Source: an uncultured Clostridium sp. (lineage in GTDB: Bacteria > Bacillota > Clostridia > TANB77 > CAG-508). Taken from it: DNA of 64,000 nt. This document shows positions 4,063-47,470 of the stretch, piece by piece. Each line of letters opens with the position of its first letter. Position 1 is the stretch's first letter. The stretch covers positions 242 through 64,241 of the forward strand of contig CANBES010000007.1 in NCBI GenBank assembly GCA_947367845.1, written 5' to 3'. The notes below the pieces were generated by a model. The model saw nothing but the letters and a program-made list of their open reading frames with translations, was not told the origin of the DNA and searched no databases. The translations under genes were made by a program, and so were the position numbers.

Positions 4063-4157
4063 GGTGTTTTTGGGAGAACCCTGCCAATGGGGACGGACCT
4101 TTTTGGCAGGGATATATTTTTAAAGGATGTTTTTAAGGACTGTCCCTAAAAACACCC
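4063..4157. repeat. composite nested hairpin repeat (type B unit ccctgccaa-TGGGGACGGACCTTT-ttggcaggg inside a ggtgtttttggg/ccctaaaaacacc outer stem)
   Basis: Inverted repeats read directly. GGGGACGG box at 4089-4096. Confidence 0.7.
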
Positions 4158-6558: not shown

Positions 6559-6588
6559 AACAGATTACAAACCGGCATAAAGCTTAAT

Positions 6589-6620
6589 CGATGTTTTTTT
6601 GCTCCGTCCCCAAAAACATC
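6589..6620 (-). repeat. GGGGACGG-loop hairpin, type A (reverse orientation)
   Basis: cgatgttttttt-GCTCCGTCCCC-aaaaacatc sits 30 nt after the stop codon. Confidence 0.8.
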
Positions 6621-6712
6621 AAAAAAAATCATAATTATTCTTTACATTTAGAAAGAACTAATATAAAATAAACGTAAATAGGACATACTAAGAAAAAATA
6701 TGGAGGAAACAA

Positions 6713-9103
6713 ATGAAAAGAAAAAATGAATTAAGTTATAAAGATTTAAAAATGACTTGTAATCCATCTGTTTTTGATTTTGACACAACTGAAGAGTTAG
6801 ACCCAATAATAGAAGGAATTGGTCAAGAACGTGGAATAAAAGCACTAGAATTTGGACTAAAGGTAGATGTAAAAGGATATAACCTATACTTAGAAGGTCC
6901 AAGTGGTGTAGGAAAGACAATGTATACAAAAAATTATTTGGATACAATAGCAGCGAAGAAAAAAGTGCCTTCAGACTGGTGCTACGTATATAATTTTGAT
7001 AATCCTAATCAGCCTGTGGCAATCGAGTTACCTGCTGGACAAGGTAAACAATTTAAAGATTCAATGGAAGGCTTTATAAAAGAGATTAGAAAAGACATCA
7101 GAAAAACTTTTAATAATGATGATTTCGAAAAGGAAAAAACCTTAATAAAACAAGAATTTGAAACAAAACGTACAGAGTTATTAGATAAATTAAACAAAGA
7201 TGCATCAAAACACAATTTCCAAGTAAAAACAGCACAAAATGGAATTTATATGACACCAATTGTGGATGGAAGAGCGATTGAAGAAGAAGAATTTGAAAAA
7301 TTGGCAGAAGAAGTTAAAAAAGCATATGAAGAAAGAGCTGTAATTGTGCAAGAACAAATTATGGCCACAATAACTCAGATAAAAGAAATAGAAAGATTAT
7401 CAGACAAAAAAATATCAGAATGGCAGTCAAATGTTGCGCTTCTTACAGTAAATGCGCATATTAATTATTTGAAATCACAATATAAAAGAAATAAAAAAAT
7501 AACAAAATTCTTTAATGATGTTAAACAAGACGTTTTGAGAAATATACCTGCATTTTTAGAAGATAACTCAAAACAACCACAACAACAACCAGTTCAAGGC
7601 CCTGTACAAAGAAAACCAGATCCAAGCGAAAACTATCGAGTAAATCTGTTTGTTGATAATTCAAACCGAGAAGGTGCTCCAGTCATAATGGATTCAAACT
7701 ATTCATACCATAATATTTTTGGAAGTTTGGAATACGAAAATTACTATGGAGCGTTAAAAACAGATCACACAATGTTAAAGCCAGGACTTATGCAACAAGC
7801 AAATGGCGGATATATAATTTTCCAAGCAAAAGACTTGTTAACAAATGGCGCTTGTTATGAAGCTCTAAAAAAAGCATTAAGAGTAAAACAAATAGCAATA
7901 GAAAATACAGCAGACCAACGTTCTTCAATGGTTATGGTTTCTCTAAAACCTGAACCAATACCACTAGACTTAAAAGTTATTTTAATTGGTAATGCAAATA
8001 TTTATCAAACATTATTAGCTATGGATTCAGACTTTAGAAAATTATTCAAAATAAAAGTTGAATTTGAAGAAAGTGCCGAAATTAACAAAGATAATGTTAA
8101 CAAATTAGCAAGAATTATATATAGCTTCTGTGAAGCAGAAGAATTGCCACACCTAGACAAAGAAGCGATGGCAAGATTGGTAGAATACGCATCTAGATTA
8201 GCTGGAAGTCATAGTAAAGTTTCTACAAGATTTAATGATCTAATGCAAGTAGTAGCAGAAGCTGCAACTTGGGCAAAAATGTCAAAATCAAAAGTTGTAA
8301 CTGCGAAATTCATTGACAAAGCATTAGCAGAAAGAGTTGAAAGGGTAAAAAAATATGACGAAAGATATCTAGAAATGATAAAACAAAACTCATTACTAAT
8401 AAATACTACAGGATATGAAGTTGGAGAATTAAACGGTTTAACAGTTATGACAATAGGAGATTACACATTTGGAAAACCAGCCAAAATAACTGTAAACACA
8501 TACACAGGAAAAAGTGGTATAGTAAATATAGAAAGAGAAGTTGAAATCTCTGGGCCTTCACACTCTAAAGGTGTATTGATTTTAACAGGATATTTAGGAG
8601 AAATGTTTGCACAAGACATTCCACTATGTTTAACAGCAAGTATCTGTTTTGAACAATTATATAACGGAGTTGACGGAGATAGTGCTTCTAGTACAGAGTT
8701 ATATGGATTACTTTCAAGCTTGTCAGGAATACCAATAAATCAAGCAATTGCCGTTACTGGTTCTGTTAATCAAAAAGGACAAATACAACCAATTGGTGGC
8801 GTAAATGAGAAAATAGAAGGGTATTTCCAAGTATGTAAAACTCGTGGACTAGACGGAACTCATGGAGTTATGATACCTATTCAAAATGTTGATAATTTGC
8901 AACTATCAGCTGAAATTATTGAAGCTGTTAAAGAACAAAAATTTCATATTTATTCTGTTTCTACAATTGAAGAAGGAATTGAAGTTTTAACAGGAGTTCC
9001 AGCTGGTAAGAAGGATAAAGACGGTCATTTTCCAGCAGGTACAGTAAATTATCTTGTTTATGAAAAACTTAAAAAATATGCAAAAGTAAGTTCAAAAAGT
9101 TAA
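6713..9103 (+). CDS. Lon-related AAA+ ATPase / S16 serine protease
   Basis: P-loop GPSGVGKT. C-terminal S16 motifs GDSASS (Ser) and GGVNEKIEG (Lys). 796 aa. Confidence 0.8.
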   Translation: MKRKNELSYKDLKMTCNPSVFDFDTTEELDPIIEGIGQERGIKALEFGLKVDVKGYNLYLEGPSGVGKTMYTKNYLDTIAAKKKVPSDWCYVYNFDNPNQPVAIELPAGQGKQFKDSMEGFIKEIRKDIRKTFNNDDFEKEKTLIKQEFETKRTELLDKLNKDASKHNFQVKTAQNGIYMTPIVDGRAIEEEEFEKLAEEVKKAYEERAVIVQEQIMATITQIKEIERLSDKKISEWQSNVALLTVNAHINYLKSQYKRNKKITKFFNDVKQDVLRNIPAFLEDNSKQPQQQPVQGPVQRKPDPSENYRVNLFVDNSNREGAPVIMDSNYSYHNIFGSLEYENYYGALKTDHTMLKPGLMQQANGGYIIFQAKDLLTNGACYEALKKALRVKQIAIENTADQRSSMVMVSLKPEPIPLDLKVILIGNANIYQTLLAMDSDFRKLFKIKVEFEESAEINKDNVNKLARIIYSFCEAEELPHLDKEAMARLVEYASRLAGSHSKVSTRFNDLMQVVAEAATWAKMSKSKVVTAKFIDKALAERVERVKKYDERYLEMIKQNSLLINTTGYEVGELNGLTVMTIGDYTFGKPAKITVNTYTGKSGIVNIEREVEISGPSHSKGVLILTGYLGEMFAQDIPLCLTASICFEQLYNGVDGDSASSTELYGLLSSLSGIPINQAIAVTGSVNQKGQIQPIGGVNEKIEGYFQVCKTRGLDGTHGVMIPIQNVDNLQLSAEIIEAVKEQKFHIYSVSTIEEGIEVLTGVPAGKKDKDGHFPAGTVNYLVYEKLKKYAKVSSKS

Positions 9104-9111
9104 TTATAAAA

Positions 9112-9140
9112 TTGCCAAGAGGGATGGACCTTTTTGGCAA
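9112..9140 (+). repeat. GGGGACGG-loop hairpin, type B variant
   Basis: ttgccaa-GAGGGATGGACCTTT-ttggcaa lies directly after the lon-like stop codon. Confidence 0.7.
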
Positions 9141-9155
9141 TTTTTTGATGCAAAT

Positions 9156-9682
9156 CCTGCCAACGGGGACGGACCTTTTTGGCAGATTTCTGCCGTTGGG
9201 GGACGGTTCTTCCTAAAATTGGCGATGGTTTCCTTCCGCCGTATATGTGCAAAATTTTGATTTTGCTTGCTTGAATGAAGAAAAATTTAAAATTTGTAAG
9301 TTTATATAAAAAGTAATGTTCGCGGGCAAATTCTTATTTTTATTTTTCATAAATTCTTAGGTTCCTTACATAAGAAAAGAAATTCTAAAATCTTTTTATG
9401 GCACCCTTCCACAGCAAGTGTGAACTCTTTCCATAAAAAGATTAAAGAATTTCTATTTTTTTATTTCAGTCACATTCATCATTTATTCAAAATATAAAAT
9501 AAGAATTTGAGCCTGAGTGAAAGCTCCTTTTTATATAAACATACAAATTGTTATTGAACGTAATGAACAAAAGCAAAATCAAAATTTTACACATATACGG
9601 CGGAAGGAAACCATCGCCAATTTTAGGAAGAACCGTCCCCAGTGGCAGAAACCTGCCAAAAAGGACCGTCCCCGTTGGCAGG
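9156..9682. repeat. giant imperfect palindrome (~527 bp), copy 1 of a structured repeat family (MITE-like element or large hairpin RNA)
   Basis: Arms pair end to end around a centre near 9419. A conserved ~255 bp core spans 9293-9548. The outer arms contain GGGGACGG boxes. Confidence 0.85.
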
Positions 9683-9780
9683 GTAGATAACAATTTTGTA
9701 CTATGTAGTCAAAATAACATAAAAGTATTGCAAAAATTAGTAAAAATATATATAATATAGCTAATTGAAAGGGTGAAAAA

Positions 9781-10347
9781 ATGAATAAAACCAAGAGAAA
9801 AATATTTGAAGCTTCAATGAAATTGTTTGCAGAAAAAGGATATGACGCAACAAGCATAGAAGAAATAACTGCAACTGTAGGTGTAGCAAAAGGAACGCTA
9901 TATTATCATTTTTCAAGCAAAGAAGAAATATTCAACTTTTTAGTAGAAGAAGGAATGAAACTACTACATAACAGCGTAGACTTAAAAATAGATAAATTGC
10001 CTAATTACATAGATAAATTAAAAGCAATTGTGTTAATACAAATAAAAATAGTAGTAAAATATGAAAATTTAATAACAATATTACTAAATCAATTTTGGGG
10101 AAGTGAAGCAAGAAATCAAATGTGCAAAGAACAGATTGGTACATACATTGAAAAAATTGAACAAATAGTAAAAGCAGGAATAGAAAAGGGCGAAATTAAG
10201 CAAGGAAATCCACAAGCAATAGCGTCTGAAATATATGGGTTAATATGTTCAAGCCTAGTATATAAAACAAGATGTAAAGAAGAAATGGATATAATGGAGC
10301 TATACAAAGAGTTTGAAAATACAGTAATAAAAGGATTAAAAAAATAA
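9781..10347 (+). CDS. TetR/AcrR family transcriptional regulator
   Basis: N-terminal HTH: FAEKGYDATSIEEITATVGVAKGTLYYHF. Confidence 0.85.
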   Translation: MNKTKRKIFEASMKLFAEKGYDATSIEEITATVGVAKGTLYYHFSSKEEIFNFLVEEGMKLLHNSVDLKIDKLPNYIDKLKAIVLIQIKIVVKYENLITILLNQFWGSEARNQMCKEQIGTYIEKIEQIVKAGIEKGEIKQGNPQAIASEIYGLICSSLVYKTRCKEEMDIMELYKEFENTVIKGLKK

Positions 10348-19617: not shown

Positions 19618-19627
19618 TAAATGATTC

Positions 19628-19758
19628 TGCCAAAGGTTATATATATAATTTTTACCGTTCTCCCCATTCTAAAAATTCTAACAAAAGTTTTTAACTTTTG
19701 AGAATTTTTGAACGGTCCCCACAAACCACTTAAAAAATTATATATATAACCTTTGGCA
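19628..19758. repeat. 131-bp imperfect palindrome with CGGTCCCC-type boxes in internal loops
   Basis: tgccaaaggttatatatataattttt ... aaaaaattatatatataacctttggca. Boxes at about 19654-19665 and 19712-19720. Confidence 0.8.
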
Positions 19759-19788
19759 AAATAATAAATAAAGAAAGGATAATAGATA

Positions 19789-23682: not shown

Positions 23683-24004
23683 ATGTTTATAAGGAAGAAT
23701 AAAGTAGGAAAAAAGGAAAATTTGAAAGAAAAAATGAATATTTTGACATTTGCTATTGATAGTTTGAGTAGGATTTTAGAAGAAGGGAATTTTATTGAAC
23801 TTACGTATATATTAGGAAATAAAAAGGAAATTATAAAAAGAAATTTGCTTGCTGGTATATTTAGAGGAATTGGTATACGGCATAGGTGTTACTGTTATTA
23901 CTGCAGTTCTTATAATTTTGCTTCAAAAAATTGTGACGTTAAATATTCCTATTATTGGTGAATATATTGCTGATATTGTTGAAATTGTGGAGAAGAGCAG
24001 ATGA
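23683..24004 (+). CDS. DUF5665-like small membrane protein, frame interrupted at in-frame CGG 23878-23880 (a pseudogene by standard rules)
   Basis: Skipping C23878 gives ...FRGIGI|GIGVTVITAVLIILLQKIVTLNIPIIGEYIADIVEIVEKSR*, with the stop at 24002-24004. Confidence 0.6.
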
Positions 24005-24034
24005 TGTTTTTGGGGACGGAGCAAAAAAACATCG
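24003..24034 (+). repeat. GGGGACGG-loop hairpin, type A
   Basis: gatgttttt-GGGGACGGAGCAA-aaaaacatcg. Confidence 0.8.
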
Positions 24035-24071
24035 ATTTTAAACGTTTCTGTTTGTCAAAAAAATCCAACAA

Positions 24072-24123
24072 GGAGTGTCCCCAATGGCAAAAAATTGCCA
24101 AAAAGGACCGTCCTATTTGGCAA
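24072..24123 (-). repeat. GGGGAC-box hairpins (type B variants, reverse orientation)
   Basis: ggagtgtcccc...tggcaaaaaattgcca...ttgccaaaaaggaccgtcctatttggcaa. Confidence 0.65.
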
Positions 24124-26903: not shown

Positions 26904-26938
26904 AGAGCTACGAACACAGCAGTTTGTAGCTCTTTTTT
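26904..26938 (+). terminator. rho-independent terminator
   Basis: agagctac / gtagctct stem followed by TTTTTT. Confidence 0.75.
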
Positions 26939-27061
26939 GCATTATTTAGTAACTATATTAGGCAGGAAAAAGTTGCAAAACTTGACAAAAAATGAAAAAT
27001 AATATATACTAGGAACGTTAAACCAAAGGATGTAATATAATATAGTAAGGAGTAATACAAA

Positions 27062-40787: not shown

Positions 40788-42197
40788 TTATGCACACAAT
40801 TTCATTTTTAGTTTTTGTTTTCCATAATAAGAACGGCAATCTTTTAACTGTCTATTTCTATATCTTGCAAGAATATGTCCATAAGTTTCTTTTATTTGTC
40901 TATCATCTACATGTCCAAGTATAGTAGCAATAACAAGTAAATCCATTCCTGCTTCAATCATTCTAGTAACAGCAGTATGTCTACACATATGGGTATGGCA
41001 TCCTTTTGGAAGTTCTAGTTTTACACCTGCTTCTCTACAGATTCTCTTAAATATATTGTTTAAACAACGATGATCTATATAACTTCCATCTTTTTGACAG
41101 AACAATAGATTTTCTTTATTATTCGGATTACTTTTTGCATTTTTAATTTGGTCTTTTACGATAGCAAGCATAAGTTCTTCATCAAATATGTCAAATGGTA
41201 CAAACCTCTCATCTAATAATCCTTGCTCTATTTTCTTATGGCCAGTTTTAGTAGTATCGCCCATGATAACTTTTCCACCATCACAAGATAGAGTTCTGTT
41301 TATTACAAATCCATTAGCTTTAAAATCAATATGTTTAGTAATGTCAATAGCACCAAGTTCTCCAATTCTAGCTGCAGATAATAATGCACATATAAATAAA
41401 TTTCTTAATGTTCTTTCATCATAATTACACCTAGAGCTTTTTACCAAAGGTTTAGTTAATAGATGTTCCATAAGTTTTTTCTGCTCTTCTACTTCAAATG
41501 CTTGTACAGGTTCTTTTTTCTGCAGAGAGACAGGGGTAAAGGTTCGTAACATAGGATTATCTGGATATGATATTATTTTATCCATTACACATTGCATGAA
41601 TCCTGCTTTTAGTTTTGCAACAATTTTATCTATTTCTCCTTGTGATAGATGCCTTATAGAATTAAGAAAATTCTGTATTTCTTCATAAGTAACCTTTTGG
41701 ACTGGTTTCTTAAAATCTTTCCAATTTTCAATATAGGCATAGTGGTATTGATCTTTATCTTTTGTATTTTTTATTATCTTTCCTGCTTCAAATTTAACAT
41801 TACCTATTTTTTTAACTACTTCTATAATAGTGATTCCATTTTTCTTTACATATGTTTTGGTTTGAATTTTAGCTTCTACATCTTTTTTCTTTTCAACAGA
41901 TGCAGTTCTAGTAGACTCGTTTGCTACAGTAGTTCTAGAACCATCATCAAGTGTAATTTGGGCAGGGTATCTATTATAACAATAAAATCTATCGCAAACT
42001 CCTTTTTTTAGGCAAATAGTACATTCTTTACATTTGGAACATTTTTCCCAATTAGTTCTATTGGAGCAAAAACTTCTGTCTGTACATTCTGCACAAATAG
42101 GACACATTTTACTATTATCAAATTTTTTCTTTCCTTTTTGAATAGTATTATATACAGAGCCTTCTCCGTTACCATTCCTTCCAAGTTTTTTTGCCAT
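40788..42197 (-). CDS. tyrosine-type site-specific integrase with a Cys-rich N-terminal insertion
   Basis: C-terminal catalytic R...HMCRHT...GH......Y. The N-terminus has CPICAEC...C...CSKCKECTIC...C..FYC. The start is MAKKLG after GGAGG. Confidence 0.85.
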   Translation of the reverse strand: MAKKLGRNGNGEGSVYNTIQKGKKKFDNSKMCPICAECTDRSFCSNRTNWEKCSKCKECTICLKKGVCDRFYCYNRYPAQITLDDGSRTTVANESTRTASVEKKKDVEAKIQTKTYVKKNGITIIEVVKKIGNVKFEAGKIIKNTKDKDQYHYAYIENWKDFKKPVQKVTYEEIQNFLNSIRHLSQGEIDKIVAKLKAGFMQCVMDKIISYPDNPMLRTFTPVSLQKKEPVQAFEVEEQKKLMEHLLTKPLVKSSRCNYDERTLRNLFICALLSAARIGELGAIDITKHIDFKANGFVINRTLSCDGGKVIMGDTTKTGHKKIEQGLLDERFVPFDIFDEELMLAIVKDQIKNAKSNPNNKENLLFCQKDGSYIDHRCLNNIFKRICREAGVKLELPKGCHTHMCRHTAVTRMIEAGMDLLVIATILGHVDDRQIKETYGHILARYRNRQLKDCRSYYGKQKLKMKLCA

Positions 42198-42346
42198 AAA
42201 AAAACCTCCATTTTTCAAATAATTTTTACATAAAACTATTGAAAAATGGGGGAATTTTGTATATAATACAAAAGTAAGCACTTTCAATAGTGTTTATGCC
42301 TTTGGATAATGTGTTGAGCGGCAAACTACATCACATTATCCGCTTT

Positions 42347-43776: not shown

Positions 43777-43902
43777 ATGGGTTACAAAAAAGAAGAAATT
43801 GTACTTTACACAAAAGAGGATTTAAAGGAAATACAGAATGATAAAATCACAAAACAAAAATTACTTGTTAATAAAAAAGTTGCCGCTCAACACAAAAAAT
43901 AA
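43777..43902 (+). CDS. 41-aa hypothetical protein
   Basis: Strong AAGGAGGG RBS. Not in the supplied track because of its length. Confidence 0.4.
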   Translation: MGYKKEEIVLYTKEDLKEIQNDKITKQKLLVNKKVAAQHKK

Positions 43903-43916
43903 AAGGAGGGAGGAAT

Positions 43917-44234
43917 TTGAAAAAGAAGATAGAACCTTCGATGACCTGGGATGAAGCTCCAGACACTATTGGTCCAGATGAACTTGCAAAAATTTTAGGA
44001 GTAGGAGAACCAAATGCCAGAAGCAAGTTTGATGAAAAGGGCTTCCCACGAATACCAGGACTAGGAAATTTGAGAAAAGCAGACAAAGAAGCTGCAAGAC
44101 TCTATCTACAAGGTATAAACATTAAAACGAATCAAAAAGAGGCAATTACAGGATTATTGCTATTTGAATTAAAAAAGCTCAACACAAAATTGGATGAGAG
44201 AAATAAGGAGGAAGTAGAAAGTGCGAATTGTTAA
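43917..44234 (+). CDS. excisionase/MerR-like HTH DNA-binding protein
   Basis: IGPDELAKILGVGEPNARSKF helix-turn-helix. TTG start after AGGAGGGAGG. Confidence 0.45.
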   Translation: MKKKIEPSMTWDEAPDTIGPDELAKILGVGEPNARSKFDEKGFPRIPGLGNLRKADKEAARLYLQGINIKTNQKEAITGLLLFELKKLNTKLDERNKEEVESANC

Positions 44235-44517
44235 TAAAAGAAAATTCACAAAAAGTATTTTGATTTTAATATTCATCATAGTAATTACTATCATTTGTAT
44301 TAGTCAAATTTTTAATAAACCAAAATATAACATAGAAACAATAGATTATATCGTTTCAAAAAATGAAACATTATGGGGAATAGCAGAACAATATAAAATG
44401 CCTGATCAAGATGCTAGGGATTACATAGATAAAATAAAAGAACTTAACAACATGAAAACAGCTACTATATACGAAGGACAAGCAATAACAATAATAATTT
44501 ATGAGGAGGTAAAGTAG
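44221..44517 (+). CDS. membrane-anchored LysM domain protein
   Basis: TM helix followed by YIVSKNETLWGIAEQY...ATIYEGQAITI (LysM). Confidence 0.65.
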   Translation: MRIVNKRKFTKSILILIFIIVITIICISQIFNKPKYNIETIDYIVSKNETLWGIAEQYKMPDQDARDYIDKIKELNNMKTATIYEGQAITIIIYEEVK

Positions 44518-44518
44518 A

Positions 44519-44794
44519 ATGCCATTAAATAGTAAGATATTAGATAAAATTAGATGCCTATATGAAATAGCAAATAAACTTACTAAATACTGGGTGCATA
44601 TAGAATCATATAAATTTGATGCATATAACACATATTCGTTAAAAGTAGATGTCTATGCATTTATTGATGGAAAACAAGCATCATTTTATAGCAAAGAAAT
44701 TCAAATAAATAAAGATGATGCAGAAGCGGAACTACAATATGCTATAGACAATATAAAAGAGCTAATCACTCCCACCGAAAATGACAATGATTAA
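44519..44794 (+). CDS. hypothetical phage protein
   Basis: ORF coupled to neighbouring genes in the operon. Confidence 0.45.
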   Translation: MPLNSKILDKIRCLYEIANKLTKYWVHIESYKFDAYNTYSLKVDVYAFIDGKQASFYSKEIQINKDDAEAELQYAIDNIKELITPTENDND

Positions 44795-44878
44795 CTCTAT
44801 ACAGAAATATTTTTGCAAACACTTCTATTGCTTATTATAGCACAATGGCAGTAGAAGTCAAGCGGAAAGGAGAAAAAA

Positions 44879-45733
44879 GTGCATGATATAAAGCAAATCA
44901 ATTACATTAAGCAGCTCAATGAGTTCTATTCTATTTTGGATTATAAGCCTTTATCATCTAATGCTATATCTTTATATGGATTTTTATTGCATGTAGCAAA
45001 TAAGACTGGTTGGCTCAATGAGTTCAGAGTAGCTAATACTACGATTATGAGTAAATGTAAATTGAATACATCAGCTCTACAAAGAGCAAGAATGGAATTA
45101 ATAAACAATGGATATATCAGATATAAAAAAGGAAGCAATCAAAACGAAATGCCTAGATACAGCTTAGTTATACTATATTTTGAACAAGCAAATGCACAAG
45201 CGGATAAACAAGCAGATGAACAAGCAAACAATCAAGCAGAAGATATACCGAACACTACACCGAACGCACAACCAGGCGAACACAATAATAAACAAAACAA
45301 TACAAAACAAAACACAAATAATAAACTAAACCAAACTAAACTAAACTTGTTTTTTAATTATATTTCTAATGAAGAAGCGGAATTCGATGGAATAAGTCAA
45401 TCACAAAAAGAGGGCATTATTGGGATTTTGAAAGGTCTAGAAATATATATAAATCCATTAGCAAATTTATCTTGTTTACCATCAAGTTATATTGAGGATG
45501 CCAAAGTACAATATTGGGTGATTAAAGAAATATATTTTAGCGAATATAAAGTCTATTTAAATGAATTAACAAGAAATGACTTTATGTTTAGGTATTTGAA
45601 AACACAGAAATATATGGAAGCAAAAGAAAACTATGATGAAGAGGAATTTGTAAGCTATTTCATTACATGCTTACATGATGAAATGAAGGGAGAAAAAAAT
45701 GTGGTTAAAACAAGAAATAGGAAGATGGTCTAG
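44879..45733 (+). CDS. phage replication initiation / replisome organizer-like protein (DnaD-type N-terminal winged helix)
   Basis: N-terminus FYSILDYKPLSSNAISLYGFLLHVANKTGW...ALQRARMELINNGYI, followed by a Q/N/A-rich linker. Confidence 0.5.
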   Translation: MHDIKQINYIKQLNEFYSILDYKPLSSNAISLYGFLLHVANKTGWLNEFRVANTTIMSKCKLNTSALQRARMELINNGYIRYKKGSNQNEMPRYSLVILYFEQANAQADKQADEQANNQAEDIPNTTPNAQPGEHNNKQNNTKQNTNNKLNQTKLNLFFNYISNEEAEFDGISQSQKEGIIGILKGLEIYINPLANLSCLPSSYIEDAKVQYWVIKEIYFSEYKVYLNELTRNDFMFRYLKTQKYMEAKENYDEEEFVSYFITCLHDEMKGEKNVVKTRNRKMV

Positions 45734-45998
45734 TAGAGAAAGTGTTCCCAAGTATGTGAAATACAAGAAAAAACCAGATGGAAGTCATCTAGTGAATTAT
45801 AAACAACAAAAAGACTATGAATACTACAAATGCGATTATTGTGGAGAGGAGATTATTATAAAAGACAAAGCAGATGAGCAAGATGGAGGAATTGCAATAT
45901 TACCAAACACAATAACAAATAGAGGAAATATAAAAATTGCATTACACAACAAATGTTTAAATCCATTATTAAGAGCAATAGAAAAGGGGGAAGGTTGA
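45699..45998 (+). CDS. hypothetical zinc-ribbon protein
   Basis: CDYCGEE ... HNKC. Confidence 0.4.
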   Translation: MWLKQEIGRWSSRESVPKYVKYKKKPDGSHLVNYKQQKDYEYYKCDYCGEEIIIKDKADEQDGGIAILPNTITNRGNIKIALHNKCLNPLLRAIEKGEG

Positions 45999-46324
45999 TG
46001 GCCAATAAGGTATATTTTGCAGAAACAGATGCAGATTATGGAGGCATATATATAGCAGCTAGAACAGCAAAAGAAGCTAAAACTTTTGCACAAGGTACTT
46101 GGATAATGGACCATGCATATAGTTGGATAGATTTAAGAGTAACTAGATGTTGGAGTGTGAAAGAAACGAAGTATGAAGGAATATTGGATATATTCCAAAT
46201 AAATGAATTAGGTCTAACTTGGTGGTGTTGTGAAAAGTGTCATGATGATAAATTCAAAATTATAAATGAACACGAATACATGTGTACTAGCTGCGGAGCT
46301 AGACTTAAAATACCATATATTTAA
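45998..46324 (+). CDS. hypothetical protein with a C-terminal zinc ribbon
   Basis: The start at MANKVYF follows a GGGGGAAGG RBS. CCEKC...CTSCG. Confidence 0.45.
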   Translation: MANKVYFAETDADYGGIYIAARTAKEAKTFAQGTWIMDHAYSWIDLRVTRCWSVKETKYEGILDIFQINELGLTWWCCEKCHDDKFKIINEHEYMCTSCGARLKIPYI

Positions 46325-46341
46325 AGGAGGACAAGCCGATA

Positions 46342-47031
46342 GTGGAAGTAAAAGAGAAAATTGTTGAAAAGATAAAAAAAGCATTAGCTCTTGCAAATAA
46401 CAACAAGAATCCTAACGAAGCACAAGCAGCAATGTTAATGGCTCAAAAAATGATGGCAAAATACCACATAGAAATGCAAGAAGTAGAAGAGGTAGAAGAA
46501 GCGGAAGTACAAGAGAATGAAGTGAATGTCAAAAAAGGTAGTTGGAGAAAATCACTAATGAAAGTAATTTGCAACAATTACAGATGCGATTGCTTCTTAA
46601 GGGGAAATACAGGGAAAAGGATAATAATTGTAGGAGCTAAAGAGGATATAGAAATAGCGAAAACAATATACGAATTTGCAGAGAATCAGTTATTAGATGG
46701 ATTTAATAGTTATTTTAAAAACAATTATGAGGAATATACAGAAATAAAAATAAAAAATGCAGTAAGAAAAGACTATGCAGATGGATTTATTAAAGGATTA
46801 AAGGAAAAATTTGCAAAGCAAAAAGAGGAAGAAATAAAGAAGAATGAACAATATGCATTGGTAGTAACTAACAAAAAAGTAGAAAAATATATGGGGGAAT
46901 TAAATATTACAGGTCATTACAGAGCAACAAGAGAAAATAGTTCATTTATAGACCCATATGCATTTGCAAAAGGAAGAAACAAAGGATTAAATATGCGAGA
47001 TTTACATTCTTGCATTGAGGAGGAAAAATAA
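46342..47031 (+). CDS. DUF2786-domain phage protein
   Basis: IKKALALANNNKNPNEAQAAMLMAQKMMAKY is typical of the DUF2786 N-terminus. Confidence 0.6.
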   Translation: MEVKEKIVEKIKKALALANNNKNPNEAQAAMLMAQKMMAKYHIEMQEVEEVEEAEVQENEVNVKKGSWRKSLMKVICNNYRCDCFLRGNTGKRIIIVGAKEDIEIAKTIYEFAENQLLDGFNSYFKNNYEEYTEIKIKNAVRKDYADGFIKGLKEKFAKQKEEEIKKNEQYALVVTNKKVEKYMGELNITGHYRATRENSSFIDPYAFAKGRNKGLNMRDLHSCIEEEK

Positions 47032-47032
47032 C

Positions 47033-47455
47033 ATGGAAGAAAAAAAAGTTTATGAATTGGAAATTCAAGAATCTATAATAGGTAAGCAAAGACCTAGAAT
47101 GAATACATACACAGGAAGAGCTTATACTCCAACAAAAACTAAAAATTATGAATACCTAGTAAGGCAATTATTTGTATATAAATATCCACAATTCGTTCCA
47201 ATAGAGGGGAGAGTTAGGATGACTATTACTGCTTATTATGAATTACCAAATAAGAGAAGCAAATTACAAGAAGCGGAAATGTTGGCAAATATAATAAGTC
47301 CTACTAAAAAACCAGATTGGGATAATATAGGAAAAATTGTTAGTGATGCCTTAAATAAGTTTGCATTTAAGGATGATGCACAAATAACAGAGGCTACAAT
47401 TATAAAGAAATATGCTAGAACTCCAAGGGTTTTAGTAAGAATTGAAGAGTATTAA
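47033..47455 (+). CDS. rusA: RusA-family Holliday junction resolvase
   Basis: GKQRPR...TP.KT..YE...PDWDNIGKIVSDALN...F.DD.QI. Confidence 0.8.
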   Translation: MEEKKVYELEIQESIIGKQRPRMNTYTGRAYTPTKTKNYEYLVRQLFVYKYPQFVPIEGRVRMTITAYYELPNKRSKLQEAEMLANIISPTKKPDWDNIGKIVSDALNKFAFKDDAQITEATIIKKYARTPRVLVRIEEY

Positions 47456-47470
47456 AGGAGGAAAATAAAA

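Follow-up and report, generated by a model that had tools for sequence, protein, structure and literature searches.

A giant palindrome between lon and tetR in an uncultured Clostridium contains a probable miniature inverted-repeat transposable element

The spacer between genes for a LonC-type protease (lon) and a TetR_N-domain regulator (tetR) in an uncultured Clostridium sp. is occupied by a giant imperfect palindrome. It lies at positions 9156-9682 of a 64,000-nucleotide stretch of contig CANBES010000007.1 (assembly GCA_947367845.1), referred to here as the window, and is predicted to form one hairpin with its centre of symmetry at 9419. A preliminary description made from the sequence had listed its stems, its asymmetric internal loops and the two neighbouring genes, had designated it the first copy of a repeat, and had favoured a structured RNA. 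All of the listed stems are indeed present at their positions, the flanking genes were correctly recognized, and a second copy is found in the window at 35333-35756. Our comparisons suggest that most of the palindrome is a member of a MITE (miniature inverted-repeat transposable element) family, and they reveal that base pairing between its two arms is actively maintained. The features on which the analysis draws are as follows, with loci from other assemblies cited by their L numbers.

9156-9201 / 9637-9682: stem (inverted repeat I2), 46 nt, 91% complementary
9199-9268 / 9571-9640: stem, 70 nt, 99% complementary
9291-9313 / 9527-9549: stem, 23 nt, 96% complementary
9327-9347 / 9489-9509: stem, 21 nt, 86% complementary
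9372-9401 / 9431-9460: stem, 30 nt, 87% complementary
9411-9423, plus strand: apical hairpin CACA-GCAAG-TGTG, from alignments
9314-9327, plus strand: left asymmetric loop TAATGTTCGCGGGC, invariant in full copies except L006 (one base, G to A)
9509-9527, plus strand: right asymmetric loop GAGCCTGAGTGAAAGCTCC, identical in all copies, the Bacteroidota copy L004 included
9348-9371, plus strand: left side of the central bubble, conserved in sequence and facing 9461-9488 in folds and alignments
9461-9488, plus strand: right side of the central bubble, with the motif TTTCAGxCACATTCAT retained in L004 too
9205-9633, plus strand: body of copy 1 (nhmmer with a nine-copy profile, E = 1e-104, profile positions 7-424)
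9245-9587, plus strand: core common to every other copy, holding all internal stems, the central bubble and the asymmetric loops
9156-9204, plus strand: left outer arm, two GGGGACGG-box hairpin units of a separate repeat family, pairing with 9634-9682
9634-9682, minus strand: right outer arm, the same two box-hairpin units inverted, from inverted-repeat comparison
9113-9147, plus strand: additional unpaired box hairpin (direct repeat D1, inverted repeat I7) immediately downstream of the lon stop codon, TGCCAAGAGGGATGGACCTTTTTGGCA with a T run behind it
35333-35756, plus strand: copy 2, a typical 424-bp member with terminal repeats ATTACTAGTTAATGG ... CCATTAACCAGTAAC, in the same orientation as copy 1

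A composite palindrome and its repeat family

The predicted fold is far more stable than chance would allow. A 541-nt stretch spanning the locus folds as plus-strand RNA at -280.8 kcal/mol, compared to -112 +/- 6.7 for shuffled sequences (z = -25), while the minus strand reaches -289 kcal/mol (z = -29.8) and folding with DNA parameters gives -182 kcal/mol (z = -25.8). Both asymmetric loops that had been pointed out are present and conserved between copies, and the right loop GAGCCTGAGTGAAAGCTCC, which faces the left loop TAATGTTCGCGGGC, can pair with itself through GAGC and GCTC. The apical hairpin exists in two forms, since other copies carry CGTG-TCAAG-CACG, an allele that differs at three base pairs on both sides (pairs 217-219 / 226-228).

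As judged by sequence comparison, the 527-bp palindrome is a composite in which an element of about 429 bp lies between an inverted pair of unrelated box hairpins. The symmetry extends to 527 bp because these inverted hairpin pairs flank the element. Thus the extent originally proposed holds for the symmetry, but not for a single element, since only 9205-9633 shows homology, over its full length, to the ~424-bp mobile element described below and the outer arms belong to another repeat family. Positions 90-432 of copy 1 align by BLAST with window positions 35370-35710 and with L001-L008 at 81-85% identity, and the two window copies share ~340 nt of core at ~81%. Copy 1 represents a divergent subfamily whose core is 82-85% identical to those of other copies and whose sub-terminal arms cannot be aligned with theirs. 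At its two tips, CCTAAAATTGGCG and its complement stand in place of GTTACTGGTTA, such that the ends are perfectly inverted but non-canonical, matching the terminal-repeat consensus at ~60% by eye. Because the canonical tips have been lost and no duplication flanks it, copy 1 is probably no longer mobile, to judge from its sequence.

The GGGGACGG box occurs nine times in the window, where 0.03 occurrences are expected. Four of these boxes lie in the copy 1 region (9165, 9199, 9633 and 9666, the last two on the minus strand), and the outer-arm units also occur apart from the element, with 94% identity at 4077-4109 and 81% identity at 24070-24122. A second type of hairpin carrying the box is found at 925-1027, 6586-6621 and 24002-24037, either as single hairpins or as inverted pairs. 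Viewed together, the short box hairpins (925-1027, 4078-4156, 6586-6621, 9113-9147 and 24002-24122) hold the box in the loop or upper stem and follow immediately on stop codons, either alone or in inverted pairs. Their stems are of two types, TGCCAA.../...TTGGCA and GATGTTTTT.../...AAAAACATC, and use G.T pairs on the plus strand, which makes them strand-specific. These hairpins look like repetitive extragenic palindromic (REP)-like or terminator repeats of this genome, and the unpaired example at 9113-9147, to go by its hairpin and T run, looks like a terminator. The latter is also present in L050 with the same left arm, beside a different gene.

L050, which derives from another assembly, is a further representative of the copy 1 subfamily located next to tetR. 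It has a different upstream gene, mismatched left and right arms and a loss of 113 nt at the apex. The contigs of L051 and L060 break at or near the element. No empty lon-tetR site was recovered: a look-up of the Lon protein gave no record, a search by way of the neighbouring DUF4363 gene led to a contig that ended in Nextera adapter at the lon 3' end, and a TetR look-up yielded only filled sites or broken contigs. The adapter-bearing contig (L060, ERZ14241383 NODE_30) has Nextera sequence (CTGTCTCTTATACACATCT...) fused to the 3' end of lon at 7370-7444, which is an assembly artefact in the public record.

The typical members of the family measure 423-439 bp from tip to tip. A census conducted with the 19-nt right loop as probe, against one genome per species, returned seven full copies in two uncultured Clostridia metagenome-assembled genomes (MAGs) of ~29% G+C (five and two copies, respectively) and one copy cut by a contig end, L004, in a MAG of Sangeribacter (Muribaculaceae, Bacteroidota; 48% G+C), together with two chance matches inside genes. 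Further copies were found in additional assemblies, and at least five are known from one MAG, two from another and two from the 64-kb window. The element was seen in mouse-gut bacteria, and all copies are intergenic. The longest, at 439 bp, carries an 11-nt internal duplication in its right terminal repeat (CATTAAACTATTAAATTAAACTATTAACTAGTAAC; L002 4849-4890).

The Bacteroidota half-copy is ~75% identical overall and its stems differ from those of the Clostridia copies, while TTTCAxGGCACATTC, TTGAGCCTGAGTGAAAGCTCCTTTTT, ACAAATTCTTATCA and AATGxAxTGAACAA are retained. A metagenome scan using the loop pattern with stem positions left free gave 39 matches, none of which could be aligned to the element, in a collection that is an incomplete census because it did not return the Joint Genome Institute (JGI) contig L056, which carries the element. 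Among viral contigs the loop probe gave no matches and a terminal-repeat probe gave three chance matches inside phage genes, and BLAST searches of plasmid and phage sequences with copy 2 and the Bacteroidota half-copy found no matches. Our literature search found no paper that prints the terminal-repeat or loop sequences.

Ends, target duplications and empty sites

Typical copies begin with GTTAC-N2-3-GTTAATG(G) and end with (C)CATTAAC-N2-3-GTAAC, forming terminal inverted repeats of 15-20 bp, and the canonical repeat is also present at the right end of the Bacteroidota copy. Several copies are bounded by 8-bp target-site duplications: CATTCTAT/CATTCTAT in L001, TCTTTTTT/TCTTTTTT in L006, and AAATTTCT/AAATTCCT in L007 and L008, where seven of the eight positions match. 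Filled and empty versions of the same site reveal the corresponding insertion events. The rpsI-nlpC spacer reads TTTTGCATTCTAT[428 bp]CATTCTATGTAGG when filled, as in L001 and L065, and TTTTGCATTCTATACAGG, with a single octamer CATTCTAT, when empty, as in L055, L061, L062, L063, L066 and L067. Likewise, a clpC-side spacer is filled in L005/L056, L061, L062, L063, L066, L067 and the window and empty in L064. A third site, upstream of a Muribaculaceae phosphotransferase gene, holds the element in L004 and is empty in L058, which derives from a separate sample. Insertions reside in AT-rich intergenic DNA, in at least two cases just past the T-tract of a terminator.

In the window itself the rpsI-nlpC site (26930-26965) is unoccupied, and differs from the clean empty site by 14 extra nucleotides that include AGTAAC. 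These nucleotides (26940-26953) match the terminal repeat at 12 of 14 positions and were considered as an excision footprint, a reading that was rejected because the more distant, element-free L064 has a similar spacer. From this comparison, the extra nucleotides probably reflect ancestral spacer variation. Two weak matches to the terminal repeat, at 43860 and 44536 and inverted relative to each other, were also discarded, as they are ordinary prophage coding DNA.

The element has no apparent coding capacity. It holds no stop-free stretch of more than 65 codons, and insertions and deletions between subfamilies break the reading frames. The three open reading frames (ORFs) annotated across 9487-9857 had been suspected of being artefacts, and our results agree with this view: the ORFs over the arms are not conserved, and the minus-strand ORF at 9487-9693 has no homologue among 5.8 billion proteins.

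On the basis of these terminal repeats, 8-bp duplications, filled and empty sites, small size and absence of coding capacity, the element is probably a MITE, that is, a non-coding, non-autonomous DNA transposon, of ~424 bp. MITEs are recognized in part by their small size, typically less than 500 bp and 50-800 bp in prokaryotes (PMC10969869, PMC11602168). The present family falls within this range, and also shows terminal inverted repeats of at least the customary minimum of 10-15 bp, a duplication within the usual 2-10 bp, non-coding sequence and dispersal as multiple copies in AT-rich intergenic DNA. Insertion would involve staggered cuts in the target made by a DDE-type transposase supplied in trans. 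No duplication flanks copy 1, and none flanks copy 2, a recombinant joint. Copy 2 is a chimera: the clpC-side copy of other strains is the orthologue of its left arm, and L003 that of its right arm; its descent from two different ancestral copies accounts for both the mismatched arms and the missing duplication.

Several observations weigh against this assignment. Neither a transposase nor an autonomous element with these ends was found in the window or in ~230 kb of host loci, and no helper with the same terminal repeats was found in plasmid, phage and viral collections. The sole recombinase in the window is the tyrosine integrase of a prophage, at 40788-42287. With neither GTTAC tips nor a target-site duplication, copy 1 is assigned to the family by homology alone. 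Moreover, among copies with intact duplications and with cores that are ~98-99% identical, the ~35 nt of subterminal sequence diverge by 30-40%, a pattern that could arise from unsampled source copies, from conversion restricted to the core, or from regeneration of the arms at transposition. The comparison sequences are mostly short-read metagenome assemblies, so that core identity and some mosaicism could be assembly effects. For example, L005 and L056 represent the same strain and differ over 7169 nt by four mismatches and one gap, all within the central 70 nt of the element, which reflects either patchy conversion from another copy or mis-assembly of a metagenome repeat. Because mis-assembly may be the cause, the near-identity of cores within a MAG should be read with care. 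Finally, a plain MITE requires nothing beyond its ends, yet the unpaired loops are conserved where the stems have changed, in the Bacteroidota copy as well. Such loop conservation is the hallmark of a folded molecule with a function, and conversion between arms does not account for it.

The preliminary description had allowed that the palindrome might be a simple MITE with target-site duplications, a cognate transposase elsewhere and no selected structure. Terminal repeats, duplications and empty sites are all in evidence and the transposase is not; a lack of selected structure cannot be concluded from these, as the palindrome is clearly kept, in a pattern that homogenization of the arms at the DNA level fits at least as well as selection on a folded transcript.

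Maintenance of pairing and competing explanations

Covariation was assessed on a nine-copy alignment with an RNAalifold consensus of 161 base pairs, using 500 shuffled alignments and slid pairing partners as null models. Paired alignment cells amount to 96.1%, compared to 89.4% in shuffles and 40-50% with slid partners. Changes on both sides of a pair are seen at 47 of the 161 pairs, whereas shuffles give 17.6 +/- 2.7 (none of the 500 reaches 47) and slid partners give 9-21. Double changes account for 96 cells and one-sided changes for only ~13. The arms show the highest density of covariation (32 of 49 pairs), and covariation extends to the variable positions of the terminal repeats, as in L006 (GTTACAAG/CTTGTAAC). 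Pairing within the palindrome is therefore actively maintained.

Related loci provide a view of this process over short evolutionary distances. Between the orthologues L007 and L008, two pairs have undergone compensated changes, with divergence of 2.7% in the flanks and 4.9% in the elements, and both arms of L063 carry GGGGAATAATGGGC in place of the ...AACAAT... of its relatives, against a flank divergence of ~2%. Among five assemblies that share both flanks of the clpC-side site (1-2.5% divergence), the core of L063 is inverted relative to L061, L062, L066 and L067, while its distinguishable tips (14 nt on the left, 15 nt on the right) have not moved; the window core is oriented like that of L063. 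Given the positions involved, assembler confusion could not have produced this flip, since arm mismatches lie near the asymmetric part and make the orientation reliable. In addition, L065 is a deletion derivative in which only the two arms remain, joined at a GAACAA microhomology to form a 112-bp mini-palindrome, and L050, with its apex missing, is another.

Does selection or conversion act on DNA or on an RNA product? We lean, by a modest degree, towards maintenance of the palindrome at the DNA level and not as RNA, because of the double and transversion changes, the balance between G.U and A.C, the in-place core flip and the deletion derivatives. Recombination or gene conversion between arms, along with template switching during replication, would copy a change in one arm to the other, and the same processes would at times flip the core where it stands and at times remove it. 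Template switching at quasipalindromes is established (PMC7202029), as is arm-to-arm gene conversion in palindromes (PMC8600007, PMC8981503). The conserved unpaired loops probably help the element to propagate, for instance by binding the transposase or a host protein.

Extended to a mobile repeat, the structured-RNA reading proposed at the outset would hold that the element carries or is a non-coding RNA, with one strand transcribed into a long rod, functional loops and mobility as its means of spread; such an RNA might act as a double-stranded RNA substrate, as a sponge for protein or as a regulator. Strong covariation alongside conserved unpaired loops is what this reading would predict, and the covariation that had been suggested as its test was obtained, but the 47 doubly changed pairs are equally expected from conversion between DNA arms. 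The mode of change favours the latter, as transversions, for which no G.U intermediate exists, are required at 28 of the 47 pairs that covary, and the varying stems show no excess of G.U (~14 cells outside four invariant G.U pairs, compared to 14 cells of A.C). However, the apical stem switches through three transition-type pair changes, and the four invariant G.U pairs on the plus strand would let both asymmetric loops pair together. Transcripts of MITEs are also known to form stable stem-loops (PMC10969869). A particular strand is not favoured by the fold: the Watson-Crick share of pairs is at least 96% on either strand, the two strands fold about equally well, and in six of nine copies the fold of the minus strand equals or surpasses that of the plus strand. 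The orientation of the element towards the genes beside it varies and even flips in place, conserved promoters or terminators are absent, with counts equal to shuffled expectation, and Rfam 15 gave no match with the whole window at gathering score and, with the locus at E values up to 10, only hairpin-shaped noise. Lacking an Rfam family, a promoter or terminator, a strand bias and a fixed orientation, the RNA reading is in our judgement unlikely. Its best remaining support, as for any function of a folded molecule, is the conservation of loops across two phyla despite differences in the stems. Two specific RNA classes were considered and rejected. The large central bubble prompted a comparison with 6S RNA, but there is no Rfam 6S match and the element is too long and is mobile; CUGAGUGAAA was considered as hammerhead-like, but by eye it has no stem II and it has no Rfam match.

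Two alternatives at the DNA level appear less probable still. If a folded single strand were the working form recognized by a recombinase or transposase, as happens at integron attC sites and at the ends of IS200/IS605, with the loops setting strand choice, then conserved asymmetric loops, folding that is equally strong with DNA parameters, nearly pure Watson-Crick pairing that does not tolerate wobble, and termini that covary (as in L006) as if the ends must pair, would all be accommodated. Single-strand transposition by HUH enzymes and attC recombination leave no target duplication of this kind, whereas the 8-bp duplications and clean empty sites bear the mark of staggered cuts in a double-stranded target. 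Gene tables also list no HUH, integron-integrase or other candidate gene beside any copy, and we consider this reading quite improbable. Even less credence is given to a mobile invertible switch, or inverton, whose arms would be inversion sites and whose core would toggle an orientation-dependent signal such as a promoter. The core does occur in both orientations at one site (L063 and the window versus the four assemblies sharing the flanks of L063), some copies lie between divergent genes, and one strand of the apex allele CGTGTCAAGCACG contains a perfect TTGACA at a distance of 16 nt from an AATAAT. Yet the other apex allele lacks TTGACA, promoter-like matches occur at chance frequency for AT-rich DNA (5 observed, 4.0 expected), no invertase or recombinase gene is near any copy, and long inverted repeats invert without a dedicated system.

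A more speculative proposal joins mobility to the fold. A folded single-stranded DNA or RNA form might be required for propagation, with the loops as recognition sites retained in two phyla and the terminal and sub-terminal arms regenerated from each other by fold-back templating, during transposition or between its rounds. We regard this as a long shot. If true, fold-dependent propagation would explain why arms that differ between copies, yet remain self-complementary, surround an almost identical core. The element would then combine dependence on a hairpin with the target duplications of a DNA transposon, which has not so far been described.

Related elements, other features of the window and significance

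Additional features of the window were noted alongside the palindrome. A separate palindromic insert of ~140 bp, with 43-nt arms that are 88% complementary, is found in the hisS-ftsY spacer (19623-19763); it begins with CTGCCAAAGG and contains GGGGACCGTTC. This insert is present in L061, L062 and L067, mostly deleted in L063 at a TATATATATAA repeat, and absent in L065, where a ProRS-type gene replaces hisS before ftsY. The region from 43900 to 63600 is a prophage-like block of ~30 genes on the same strand, including a 935-amino-acid ORF of tape-measure size, and is adjoined by the 499-amino-acid tyrosine integrase (40788-42287, minus strand). Within this block, ORF 52125-52523 contains a tandem repeat of ~16 units of 15 nt (52216-52530; ATGAAGATACAACAR) that encodes N/D/E-E-D-T-T units, and the 935-amino-acid ORF (60748-63555) contains a 120-nt tandem duplication that is 80% identical (62848-63087). 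At gathering score, Rfam recognized no family anywhere in the 64 kb, and thus no tRNA, riboswitch or T-box leader, even beside tyrS and hisS. These two genes are often accompanied by T-boxes in Firmicutes.

Bacterial MITEs that are palindromic over their whole length include the Correia elements of Neisseria, enterobacterial ERIC, pneumococcal RUP, QMITE of Coxiella and bcr1 of Bacillus cereus. This is the closest known kind to the element, which shares each of its testable defining features with the exception of a helper insertion sequence (IS). Like these MITEs, the element is small, non-coding, AT-rich, intergenic and multi-copy, with terminal inverted repeats, a short duplication, a whole-length stem-loop and insertion polymorphism between strains. 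Unlike them, it is at the large end of the size range, has an 8-bp duplication and no known parent IS, and its arms evolve in concert out to the terminal repeats around a core that occurs either way round at one site. Its relatives also include one from another phylum, while MITE families are reported to be largely confined to one genus and cross-phylum relatives to be rare (2024 census, PMC11602168).

Other systems share only some of these characteristics. Palindromes maintained by conversion between arms, such as those of sex chromosomes and the plastid inverted repeats with their flip-flop isomers (PMC8600007, PMC8981503), and E. coli quasipalindromes subject to template-switch mutagenesis (PMC7202029) resemble the element in the copying of changes between arms, in an arm identity far higher than the divergence between copies would predict, in a spacer that can invert and in deletions at short repeats. 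The element differs in that it spans a few hundred base pairs inside a bacterial transposon and its large asymmetric loops survive, and its mechanism is deduced from comparisons. The GGGGACGG-box units resemble REP sequences and bacterial interspersed mosaic elements (BIMEs) as short hairpins just after genes, single or in inverted pairs, but their box is in the loop or upper stem, not in a G+C-rich stem, and the units are not part of the mobile element. Hairpins of attC sites and of IS200/IS605 (PATE) elements are likewise imperfect palindromes in which unpaired bases give direction and structure is kept over sequence. Those are 57-141 bp or short sub-terminal hairpins that act as single strands and leave no duplication, in contrast to the 8 bp duplicated here.

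These findings have consequences for how the region is annotated: the small ORFs over 9487-9857 should be removed, and both the lon-tetR spacer and the clpC-side spacer should be labelled as insertions of repeats. The family also marks rearrangement joints, since copy 2 is a recombinant between two copies, and its insertion polymorphisms are useful for strain typing of uncultured mouse-gut Clostridia. It is unusual for a MITE to have, as here, a relative in another phylum that shares its habitat. More generally, the family is a clear bacterial case of a transposon with concerted arms and an in-place core flip, although our understanding of how such elements work would change only if the conserved loops prove functional.

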